Shown piece after piece: positions 57,246-59,489 of a DNA stretch of 64,000 nt. The stretch's first letter is position 1, and each line of letters starts with the position of its first letter. Under the pieces are notes generated by a model. That model did no database searches, was not told the origin of the DNA, and worked only from the letters and a program-made list of their open reading frames with translations. This DNA comes from a phage. Made by a program: the position numbers and the translations under genes. The stretch is taken from sequence record PX441839.1; one strand, written 5' to 3'.

Positions 57246-57629
57246 ATGCTTCAATACAGCCACAAATTGGATGTAGGTAAGATTGGAACTTGTTTATCTG
57301 TATACGCCCTCACGGAGGAGGGCAATATCCACATGACTTACAGTGTTACCCTCAATGGTAAAGGGTTTAAGATAGATCGGTGGTACGAGGATGACCCGAG
57401 CCAAATCACAGAGGTTTGTGATTTTGATTCCTTCCTGTACCCGGATCGTATCGAAGACGGTGAAGTGGACATGGTGATCATGTTGATGGGTTCCAACATA
57501 AAAACTGATCGTTTGATTATCGATCTGTGTTCAATGTTGTGCGCTCAGTATGCGGCAGGGCATAGTGAAGAAGCCTTGTTTAAAACTGTCAATGATTCGA
57601 TTAAATATTGGTCAGAATCTGGAGACTGA
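57246..57629 (+). CDS. Hypothetical protein
   Basis: 127 aa ORF. Confidence 0.4.
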   Translation: MLQYSHKLDVGKIGTCLSVYALTEEGNIHMTYSVTLNGKGFKIDRWYEDDPSQITEVCDFDSFLYPDRIEDGEVDMVIMLMGSNIKTDRLIIDLCSMLCAQYAAGHSEEALFKTVNDSIKYWSESGD

Positions 57630-57794
57630 TGCATGTGCCCCGAAAGGCACACAATACTTATATTAAGATCTATAAACACTCACACTCCATCCGTCGTTTA
57701 CCGTGTTTATTAATGATCTTATAAAAACTTCGTTACACTCACCCATTCGGGCTTCGGTTTTTATAGTCTTTTTAAAGATCTTTATGAATTGTGG

Positions 57795-57823
57795 TTGACA
57801 ACCACATTGGTTATGATTACTAT
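57795..57823 (+). promoter_or_regulatory. Sigma70-like promoter
   Basis: TTGACA, 17-nt spacer, TACTAT; TAGGAG SD and ATG follow. Confidence 0.5.
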
Positions 57824-57852
57824 TGTATCAAAGAAAAGCATAGGAGATTGAA

Positions 57853-57951
57853 ATGGAAATTTTTATGTTGGTATCAGCTATGTTCTTGGTATGTTTGATT
57901 GATGAATTGTACTACAATGTTCGTAAGAATCCCTTCGGATGTTGGGAATAA
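57853..57951 (+). CDS. Micro-ORF (32 aa, hydrophobic)
   Basis: SD TAGGAG; MEIFMLVSAMFLVCLIDELYYNVRKNPFGCWE. Confidence 0.35.
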   Translation: MEIFMLVSAMFLVCLIDELYYNVRKNPFGCWE

Positions 57952-58058
57952 TGGACAGCTATGTCAAGATGTATGTTGGGATCATGTTGTTTGGTATGAT
58001 CCTGATGGGACTAGGTATGTTGGGTAAGTTTATAATTTGGATTATGGGGGTGTTATGA
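57951..58058 (+). CDS. Micro-ORF (35 aa, transmembrane-like)
   Basis: Start overlaps upstream stop (TAATG); MDSYVKMYVGIMLFGMILMGLGMLGKFIIWIMGVL. Confidence 0.35.
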   Translation: MDSYVKMYVGIMLFGMILMGLGMLGKFIIWIMGVL

Positions 58059-58180
58059 AGATCACGGTTACAAATATGAAGTGGTGGGCCTTAGCTCAAG
58101 TAGCGAATGACCATGTTGGTGGTGATAACAAGCGAGCACCCGCTCAAGTTTATGTGTGGGGACGAGGTAAGGTGGTATGA
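58055..58180 (+). CDS. Micro-ORF (41 aa)
   Basis: ATGA overlap with upstream stop. Confidence 0.3.
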   Translation: MKITVTNMKWWALAQVANDHVGGDNKRAPAQVYVWGRGKVV

Positions 58181-58356
58181 TTAAGAAGATCTCTTACCTG
58201 CGGTGGCAGATGTGGGAACTTATTTATAAGTTCACTTACTGGCTGTTCGCAGAGCACCCTGTCACATGGGGAGTTAAGCACAGTAGGAATATGGCATACA
58301 CTAAGTATTGTTTACCAAATCGAGGTGGGAAATGGAAGGGTATTTTCAAAAAGTAA
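58177..58356 (+). CDS. Micro-ORF (59 aa)
   Basis: ATGA overlap with upstream stop. Confidence 0.3.
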   Translation: MIKKISYLRWQMWELIYKFTYWLFAEHPVTWGVKHSRNMAYTKYCLPNRGGKWKGIFKK

Positions 58357-58571
58357 AGTGCATCGAATCTGACACTTGGATGTTTACAGAGGGATTCTTG
58401 TACCTGGCCCGAAAATCATTCTGGGGTGACGATTGGGAGATCTTGTCAGACGATGATGGTAAGTGCATAGATAATCCGTGGTACGCCCGTGGGGATGCTG
58501 ATGGCAAGCTTATTTTCATCCTAGGTGAGGATGATCTTAAATTCGAGGTTGTTAATGCAGAAGCTAACTAA
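58332..58571 (+). CDS. Hypothetical protein
   Basis: ATG with GAGGTGGG SD. Confidence 0.35.
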   Translation: MEGYFQKVKCIESDTWMFTEGFLYLARKSFWGDDWEILSDDDGKCIDNPWYARGDADGKLIFILGEDDLKFEVVNAEAN

Positions 58572-58800
58572 GGCAGAAGAAAAGTGGATTCGTGACTTAC
58601 AAAAGGTCATTGATCGATGCCCTTCTGATAGGCTGGGTTTCTACACTATAGGTGATCCCATGATAGGGATCTACAATCTAGAGTTCTTAGATAAGATCTC
58701 CGACATGAAGGGAGACCTTATCAGTATACTTAACCAAAATGGCTGGGGTTTCGATGAGATTATCTACTTCCCTGCCCCTGTTGAAGGAGTTTGTGGCTGA
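58555..58800 (+). CDS. Hypothetical protein
   Basis: Internal ATG overlapping upstream stop. Confidence 0.35.
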   Translation: MQKLTKAEEKWIRDLQKVIDRCPSDRLGFYTIGDPMIGIYNLEFLDKISDMKGDLISILNQNGWGFDEIIYFPAPVEGVCG

Positions 58801-59042
58801 TGATTGATAAAGCATTCATTGTGCAATGTATTAAGAATGACAAGTATATCCCTTCTGAGCCGAAGGAGGAGATTAACTTTAGGGAAGGTGAACGCTACAT
58901 TTGCTTCTGTAACGGTGCCCATTTTGACATCTACAATCCCAACGATGTTGATGGAATGGAGCCGTGGTCTGCCAAGAAGCTGGGTGATGGATACCTGGGT
59001 ATATTTGGGTTCAAGAATGAAGTTCAATTTGAAATTATTTAA
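58800..59042 (+). CDS. Hypothetical protein
   Basis: ATG overlapping upstream stop. Confidence 0.35.
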   Translation: MIDKAFIVQCIKNDKYIPSEPKEEINFREGERYICFCNGAHFDIYNPNDVDGMEPWSAKKLGDGYLGIFGFKNEVQFEII

Positions 59043-59047
59043 TAAAA

Positions 59048-59073
59048 AGGGTTGACTTCGGTCAGCCCTTTTT
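59048..59073 (+). terminator. Rho-independent terminator
   Basis: AGGGTTGAC-TTCG-GTCAGCCCT hairpin followed by a T-run. Confidence 0.55.
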
Positions 59074-59118
59074 GTATTCTATCCTCATCGAAACGAAACA
59101 GAGAAAAGGAAGCATAAA

Positions 59119-59343
59119 ATGAGCATGAAGAAAAAAGCAAATGACCTAGCACGTATTGCAACCCAGAAAGGACACATCGAAGCGGTTCGTCGTTTACAGC
59201 AAGCTTTTGAACTGGAATTACGTGCTGCGGGAGTAAAGGGGCTTAATATCGAACTGGCACAGATCAATGCAGTCATTGGATTCTATGAAGATAAGATCGG
59301 TGGTGAGTATGACAACGCCCTGTTTGAGATGGAGGATCTGTAA
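59119..59343 (+). CDS. Hypothetical protein
   Basis: 74 aa ORF. Confidence 0.4.
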   Translation: MSMKKKANDLARIATQKGHIEAVRRLQQAFELELRAAGVKGLNIELAQINAVIGFYEDKIGGEYDNALFEMEDL

Positions 59344-59489
59344 TGGCTGCTCATCATCCTCTGTAAGTATATCGCCGAGTTTATCGAATATACTTTCATC
59401 AATAATAAAATGTTCCTGAACTATGCCTGTGGGTTAAGTGGTAATTTTAATGGCATTCAACGAAGATAAAACTGCAAATCTGGAGATAA

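Follow-up and report, generated by a model that had tools for sequence, protein, structure and literature searches.

Four conserved, overlapping micro-genes at the head of a putative early operon in a Vequintavirinae phage

We have analysed a stretch of phage DNA of 64,000 nucleotides (nt) (record PX441839.1; hereafter the window) at positions 57795-58356, where four very short open reading frames (ORF1 to ORF4) follow one another on the plus strand behind a promoter-like site. From comparison with related genomes we conclude that all four are protein-coding genes under purifying selection, ORF2 being the least certain, and the layout of the region suggests that they are the first cistrons of a seven-gene polycistronic, translationally coupled operon running from about position 57830 to 59075. 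The window belongs to a Vequintavirinae phage of the Salmonella type, which is related to, yet distinct from, Salmonella phage SSBI34. Taken as a whole, we consider it fairly probable that the region is an early operon of a lytic phage and that it carries accessory micro-proteins directed at the envelope or at other host components.

An initial annotation, made from the DNA letters alone, had described ORFs of 32, 35, 41 and 59 codons, chained by TAATG and ATGA overlaps, behind a TTGACA-17-TACTAT promoter and a Shine-Dalgarno motif, and all of these elements can be read directly at the coordinates collected in Table 1. The chain indeed starts at the promoter and overlaps throughout, but it does not end with ORF4 as had been proposed, since ORF5, ORF6 and ORF7 extend it on the same strand to the only strong terminator of the region. 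This terminator folds at -21.3 kcal/mol (z = -6.36), a value matched by 0 of 200 shuffled sequences, and phage P7_Pc has an annotated terminator at the corresponding position. Same-strand ORFs of at least 30 codons starting with ATG cover 100% of positions 57853-58356 (504 nt), as compared with a mean of 28% and a maximum of 92.5% in 5000 first-order Markov simulations, none of which reached 99%. ORF2 could also start at an in-frame ATG at 57939, giving 39 amino acids (aa), and ORF3 at an upstream TTG (47 aa), but the starts chosen in the initial annotation agree better with the aligned homologues.

Table 1. Features of the putative operon and of the intergenic region that precedes it
Feature	Coordinates	Strand	Description
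Hairpin	57634-57651	+	GUGCCC-cgaaag-GGCACA type; ends the upstream MoxR / VWA / 127-aa block; terminator-like, weak T tract
Perfect inverted repeat	57790-57806	.	TGTGGTT-GAC-AACCACA (7+7), centred on the -35 hexamer
Sigma70-type promoter	57795-57823	+	-35 TTGACA 57795-57800, 17-nt spacer, -10 TACTAT 57818-57823
Shine-Dalgarno motif of ORF1	57842-57846	+	AGGAG, six nt ahead of ATG 57853
ORF1	57853-57951	+	32 aa, MEIFMLVSAMFLVCLIDELYYNVRKNPFGCWE
ORF2	57951-58058	+	35 aa, MDSYVKMYVGIMLFGMILMGLGMLGKFIIWIMGVL; start overlaps ORF1 stop (TAATG)
ORF3	58055-58180	+	41 aa; ATGA overlap with ORF2
ORF4	58177-58356	+	59 aa; ATGA overlap with ORF3
ORF5	58332-58571	+	79 aa; 25-nt overlap with ORF4; Shine-Dalgarno GAGGTGGG
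ORF6	58555-58800	+	81 aa; 17-nt overlap with ORF5; phrog_1714 (unknown function), E 2.4e-26
ORF7	58800-59042	+	80 aa; TGATG, one-base overlap with ORF6 stop; last gene ahead of the terminator
Intrinsic terminator	59042-59075	+	15-bp stem, UUCG loop, then UUUUUGUAUU; putative 3' end of the operon

The initial annotation had made its case depend on conservation in related genomes, and all four ORFs proved to be conserved, syntenic and under purifying selection. Homologues were found in other Vequintavirinae by a concatenated tblastn query followed by local searches for each ORF, and the four frames are open in every one of them, with 0 in-frame stops as against 3-58 in the shifted frames. Ratios of non-synonymous to synonymous change (pN/pS), which were pooled over non-independent pairs and very short alignments and thus give a direction and no precise value, are 0.42 for ORF1, 0.59 for ORF2, 0.32 for ORF3 and 0.43 for ORF4 in frame, and 0.88-1.51 in shifted frames (1.4-1.5 for ORF1, 0.88-1.49 for ORF2, 1.4-1.5 for ORF3 and 1.1-1.5 for ORF4). 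Codon usage also prefers the named frames by 4-13 nats, and Shine-Dalgarno motifs stand ahead of each homologous start in every lineage, those preceding the ORF1 homologues of Certrevirus being GAGGAGG, GGGGAGG or GGAGG.

Strong hydrophobicity had been noted for the first two ORFs, and this is borne out by Kyte-Doolittle maxima over 15 residues of 2.55 for ORF1 and 2.23 for ORF2, as compared with 0.66 and 0.49 for ORF3 and ORF4, which are not hydrophobic. In 19-residue windows the means are 1.94 and 2.15 (1.8-2.4 in homologues), and the hydrophobic segment of each peptide is long enough to span a bilayer; both are thus predicted to be single-pass membrane peptides. In ORF1 a single N-terminal transmembrane (TM) segment is followed by a conserved polar tail, D..Y...R.NP(F/Y)G.W. 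Its homologues are peptides of 30 aa with the pattern M..L.AGI.L.LVVDFFYSKYRRNPYGTWG, syntenic in nine Certrevirus loci and in the 78-kb metagenomic contig L019, and profile comparison with hhalign relates them to ORF1 with a probability of 97.6% (E 4e-12); ORF1 has no match in PHROGs or Pfam. ORF2 encodes a Gly-rich TM peptide with an invariant Lys within the hydrophobic stretch, and its homologues are peptides of about 40 aa (MELGDKI..GLV.LGG.M.LLG.IGKII...; hhalign probability 92.8%, E 4e-7). In Certrevirus and on contigs L017 and L019 these directly precede the ORF3 homologue, and in phages W70 and A73 another gene lies in between. The Certrevirus homologue of ORF2 falls in phrog_23569 (E 1.5e-21), a family of unknown function, and ORF2 of the window itself hits no PHROG at E ≤1 and has no Pfam match. 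The record of SSBI34 already lists the four ORFs as genes of hypothetical proteins; for ORF1 and ORF2 it has only the notes 'unknown_195/196' and cites no BLAST match, and the paper on that phage speaks of a class of hypothetical proteins found in SSBI34 alone (PMC8879037). Our alignments show that these two peptides are conserved.

ORF4 is the most widespread of the four, with homologues in Seunavirus (SSE121, PVP-SE1), Mydovirus (KB57), Certrevirus, W70-like and Serratia phages. It belongs to phrog_11776, a family of unknown function (E 8e-13, profile positions 1-47 of 50), and shows the conserved pattern W-E ... F-G ... V-K..(R/M)-N.A-Y. A profile search of a set of 5.8 billion proteins, used because a single-sequence search with its word index had returned only SSBI34, gave 35 homologues of 29-82 aa, and all of those with a named source come from phages. 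A phmmer search against 1.84 billion representatives gave nine matches, the genuine ones small proteins of 51-61 aa, and no bacterial or multidomain relative; three long repeat proteins (P0002, P0004 and P0006) were considered as relatives and judged spurious from their sequences. AlphaFold2, run with an alignment of 32 sequences, predicts a helical hairpin with helices at residues 2-24, 28-45 and 49-56, at a predicted local distance difference test score (pLDDT) of 77.6. The gene that comes directly before the ORF4 homologue in Certrevirus, W70/A73, L017 and L019, and overlaps with it, encodes a 116-159 aa protein with two TM segments (2-TM protein; phrog_14197), and in phage phiTE the two are fused in frame into one polypeptide, with the ORF4 part at the C-terminus (phiTE_067; L003, 4670-4990). 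On the strength of this fusion and of the constant adjacency to the 2-TM gene, we argue that ORF4 probably works with a membrane protein. In phage DU_PP_I the ORF4 homologue (p117; L014, 2433-2633) has a frameshifted C-terminus, which may reflect a sequencing error or decay.

ORF3 has the core KWWAL..AND..GGD.KRA.AQ.Y, which among its homologues takes the form M.NIKWWAL..AN...GGDGKRA.AQQYFWWPSN. It belongs to phrog_19148, again of unknown function (E 6.4e-11, profile positions 2-31 of 40), also matches phrog_32259 (E 8.8e-6), and has 20 homologues of 39-83 aa in the set of 5.8 billion proteins. When IMG/VR was scanned with a profile of ORF1 to ORF3, contigs of other phages of about 10-50 kb were found that encode a 33-aa peptide, MRLLIIPNAWAIAVANDHYGGDGKRAPRHGLYN, and by tblastn the peptide is encoded in 363 phage records, most of them from Escherichia and Salmonella phages of about 40-60 kb; among the carriers are T1-like Drexlerviridae, phages named Kagunavirus and JenP1, and also phage haarsle, where it is unannotated. 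Its family aligns with that of ORF3 over 21 columns (hhalign probability 96.7%, E 3.7e-10), in agreement with the match of ORF3 to phrog_32259, and at nine of ten inspected loci (L026-L035) the gene of the peptide starts in an ATGA overlap with the end of the gene before it. ORF3 therefore appears to belong, as a diverged member, to a superfamily of phage micro-proteins that is widespread but uncharacterised and has the core ANDxxGGDGKRAP. The idea that the ORF3-like micro-protein always follows a small membrane protein was rejected, the preceding gene encoding a 2-TM protein in only four of eight IMG/VR loci.

Across relatives the module takes several forms. The fullest, found in Certrevirus and L019, consists of the promoter, an unrelated first gene (80 aa in Certrevirus, phrog_8785; 65 aa in L019), ORF1, ORF2, ORF3, the 2-TM protein and ORF4. 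In L017 the promoter is followed by ORF2, ORF3, the 2-TM protein and ORF4, and in W70/A73 the order is ORF2, the 80-aa gene, ORF3, the 2-TM protein and ORF4; ORF1 is absent from all three. The Seunavirus and Mydovirus loci examined hold ORF4 alone, behind an unrelated soluble protein of 136 aa, and gave no significant match to ORF1, ORF2 or ORF3. The window and SSBI34 have neither the 80-aa gene nor the 2-TM gene, and it is for this reason that the four micro-ORFs abut there; a tblastn search of the window for the two Certrevirus genes, which might have lain elsewhere in it, found neither. In the GenBank records of phages CR3 and CR9 the homologues of ORF1 to ORF3 lie in unannotated stretches of about 310 nt (L008, 1807-2117, and L002, 3855-4166), and the ORF4 homologue is likewise unannotated.

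SSBI34 (MZ520832; Vequintavirinae, 141 kb) gives the only DNA-level match to positions 57600-58600, at 98.5% identity. Over 50-64 kb of the window the identity to this phage is only about 88% and mosaic: it is about 85% at 51.6-57.0 kb, rises to 97-100% at 57.25-59.25 kb, a block that contains the 127-aa gene and the seven-ORF operon, and is variable thereafter (66-99%). This jump suggests that the block with the operon may be a cassette recently exchanged by recombination, and, together with the patchy presence of the ORFs across relatives, it indicates that the module is probably a mosaic accessory cassette.

Conservation also bears on the promoter. The 220-nt intergenic region that follows the 127-aa gene can be aligned between the window and phages CR9, CR3, F1M1E, P7_Pc, phiTE and W70, with a mean identity of only 62%; within it ATTGT..TTGACA is invariant in all seven, and the initial TA of the -10 element is kept at the right spacing. 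For Certrevirus, Buttimer et al. (2020; PMC7344957) described the promoter AAAA(N3)TGTTGAC(N19)TATAAT, which occurs at 13-21 sites per genome, concentrated among short hypothetical ORFs in what the authors took to be an early region, and phage CB7 encodes no RNA polymerase (PMC7344957). The site in the window shares the TTGAC of the -35 element, ATTGTGG before it, an A/T-rich upstream stretch and sigma70 spacing, and fits the consensus imperfectly in the -10 hexamer (four of six positions), in the spacer (17 instead of 18 nt) and in having GG for TG before TTGAC. Given a sigma70-type promoter conserved at an orthologous site, and the published proposal, early expression driven by the host polymerase is a reasonable inference, and transcription would start near 57830.

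The same intergenic region has further conserved or symmetrical elements. The hairpin that ends the upstream block (-8.8 kcal/mol, z = -2.35) is kept in sequence and place in CR9, CR3, F1M1E, P7_Pc, phiTE and W70. The inverted repeat centred on the -35 hexamer is, as RNA, no stabler than shuffled sequences (z = -0.81), and partial palindromes flank the -35 element in relatives (TTGTCA-T-TGACAA in F1M1E, ATTGTG-N7-CACAAT in W70); speculatively, the repeat could be an operator through which early transcription is shut off. The motif CACTCAC...(T/C)CG...G occurs twice upstream of the promoter, at 57678-57697 and 57735-57757, and both copies align with conserved intergenic blocks of Certrevirus and W70; neither forms a stable hairpin.

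We propose that host sigma70 RNA polymerase would start at TTGACA-17-TACTAT soon after infection and that ribosomes would load at the AGGAG ahead of ORF1. Each later cistron is preceded by a Shine-Dalgarno motif of its own and begins before the one upstream has ended; its translation would thus occur through re-initiation or coupling, so that the products would tend to be expressed jointly. In this model ORF1 and ORF2 would be single-pass peptides of the inner membrane, and the positive charges after the hydrophobic segment of ORF1 suggest an N-out/C-in topology for it. ORF3 probably folds on a partner, because it shows no confident fold of its own, and the ORF4 hairpin probably acts at the cytoplasmic face of the membrane with the membrane proteins of the module. 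ORF1 to ORF4 would then form a dispensable accessory cassette that acts on the host envelope or on a host protein, be it for takeover, counter-defence or exclusion, and takes no part in replicating the DNA or building the virion. The model that we favour, micro-proteins made together early in infection and active on host components in or close to the inner membrane, rests on the hydrophobicity of ORF1 and ORF2, the link between ORF4 and the 2-TM protein and the mosaic, accessory distribution of the genes. As a bolder extension, which we think improbable as it stands, the ORF3 superfamily might bind one conserved host target, for instance a defence or envelope protein, and in Vequintavirinae do so with ORF1/ORF2 and the ORF4 hairpin in a membrane-associated takeover or counter-defence complex.

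Several results weigh against this model or against the data beneath it. Besides the restricted reach of the pooled pN/pS values, the contrast is weakest for ORF2, with 0.59 in frame and 0.88 in one shifted frame, and SSBI34, which differs from the window by one synonymous base across ORF1 to ORF3, is uninformative on selection, so that more distant loci were used. The promoter site scores 10 of 12 matches, with its -10 element contributing only 4/6, and a scan of 12 kb found 40 such sites where 25 were expected, about 1.6 times the shuffled rate; by itself the match is not significant, and its support comes from conservation across relatives. None of the four ORFs matches a PHROG family of known function, and Pfam and NCBIfam yielded no match for any of them. 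The AlphaFold2 model of ORF3 (pLDDT 54) is unreliable, has no confident fold and was unusable for a fold search, and a Foldseek comparison of the ORF4 model with the Protein Data Bank gave no significant neighbour (best E 6.4, a value that carries no meaning for a helical hairpin). The 2-TM protein, which is the main argument for placing ORF4 at the membrane, is itself lacking in the window, and the four of eight IMG/VR loci leave a fixed pairing of a membrane peptide with an ORF3-like micro-protein unsupported. Finally, a literature search found no transcriptome or ribosome profiling study for any member of the Vequintavirinae.

Other roles can be envisaged for the hydrophobic peptides. Other phages have exclusion genes that are short, expressed early and not essential, and as small TM proteins with charged C-termini ORF1 and ORF2 might be superinfection-exclusion proteins like Imm or Sp of phage T4, or else holin- or antiholin-like proteins that time lysis. 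Neither peptide resembles a known exclusion protein in sequence, however, and a lysis cassette would be expected to adjoin an endolysin or spanin gene and to be expressed late. The neighbours here are MoxR, VWA/DUF2201 and 127-aa genes and small hypothetical ones, with no endolysin or spanin gene nearby, a constitutive-type sigma70 promoter has the wrong timing for a holin, and the holin candidate and spanins of Certrevirus are located elsewhere (PMC7344957). We regard this pair of explanations as unlikely.

We give slightly less credence still to the possibility that ORF1, ORF2 or both are membrane-damaging toxins of the type I kind (Hok, TisB, Ldr, Ibs), which would depolarise the cell for early host shut-off. 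Their size, single hydrophobic helix and short charged tail are typical of such toxins, and both genes are promoter-proximal. A type I system, however, includes an antisense RNA with its own promoter, and the minus strand of 57795-58356 holds no promoter-like site; a scan of 57400-59300 against Rfam returned only sub-threshold chance matches at the terminator and no RNA gene, antisense RNA, antitoxin or small RNA family (best E 0.16, well below gathering scores), and no toxin family was matched in Pfam or NCBIfam. Early depolarisation would moreover hurt a phage that relies on host transcription and energy through a long cycle, and the conserved polar tail, D..Y...R.NP.G.W, suggests binding to a specific protein and not bulk membrane damage.

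That ORF1 and ORF2 are non-functional, either leader or spacer ORFs that merely deliver ribosomes to ORF3 and beyond or chance ORFs of the 5' leader, we consider very improbable: they are very short, lack a PHROG or Pfam family in the window and a cited BLAST match in SSBI34, and ORF2 has the least convincing pN/pS, but their motifs are retained across about 65% sequence divergence at the hhalign E values given above, their pN/pS lies below that of both shifted frames, their frames are open in all homologues behind conserved Shine-Dalgarno motifs of their own, and the Certrevirus homologue of ORF2 forms its own PHROG family.

Some features of the surroundings deserve mention. Within the operon, ORF5 scores 25.5 nats above its shifted frames in codon usage and has a sub-threshold match to DUF7244, and ORF5 and ORF7 are distant paralogues (BLASTP, 25% identity, E 4e-5). 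A promoter-like TTGACT-17-TATTCT overlaps the terminator, and positions 59026-59346, which contain the terminator, the next promoter and an ORF of 74 aa (59119-59343), have about 80-83% nucleotide identity to Certrevirus genomes; this is the only such stretch in the 14 kb examined, and the conservation of DNA across genera is unusually strong. Past the terminator, SSBI34 has an additional gene of about 330 nt that the window lacks. Upstream of the VWA/DUF2201 gene, the SSBI34 product QYC52613 (L001, 2776-3996) is labelled 'ribosomal protein uS19'; because the phiTE gene at the matching position is annotated as MoxR, this label is likely a mis-annotation.

The feature is of an ordinary phage kind, and the reading of early, membrane-targeting peptides is plausible. 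No concept is changed by it, since large lytic phages as a rule have small early genes whose function is unknown, and the added value is modest, lying in the conservation of ORF1 and ORF2 and in the link of ORF3 to a widespread, unstudied family of micro-proteins. Nevertheless, the region illustrates that genes of 30-40 codons, which fall under most annotation cut-offs, are real and conserved within a phage subfamily, and the Vequintavirinae include phages that are evaluated for therapy and biocontrol. With four genes in 504 bp behind one promoter, the cassette is compact and may be well suited to probing small early membrane peptides of phages.

Among known systems, the closest are the clusters of short 'early' ORFs of Certrevirus (PMC7344957), which share with the window the subfamily, the neighbourhood after the MoxR, VWA and 127-aa genes, the orthologous promoter and homologues of ORF1 to ORF4; compared with these, the version in the window and in SSBI34 is stripped down, being without the 80-aa gene (phrog_8785) and the 2-TM protein (phrog_14197). 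The 33-aa 'ANDHYGGDGKRAP' micro-protein (phrog_32259) resembles ORF3 in its core and in being encoded by a micro-gene whose start overlaps or nears the preceding stop, and differs in an N-terminus that lacks KWW, in its C-terminus, in the phage groups that carry it and in its varying upstream gene. Type I toxins are like ORF1 and ORF2 in length and hydrophobicity; unlike them, the two peptides stand in a phage operon, have no antisense RNA or promoter and carry a conserved, specific tail motif. To enterobacterial small membrane regulators, as to the early host-takeover proteins of phages T4 and T7, no similarity in sequence was detected, the only borderline match, to YnaM/YnfT (E 0.44), being far below its cut-off; in being small, with a single TM helix and a short conserved polar tail, ORF1 and ORF2 nevertheless resemble MgrB, AcrZ, MgtS and CydX. 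The early, dispensable and host-directed character that we infer for the cassette would likewise align it with the small early host-takeover proteins of phages T4 and T7.

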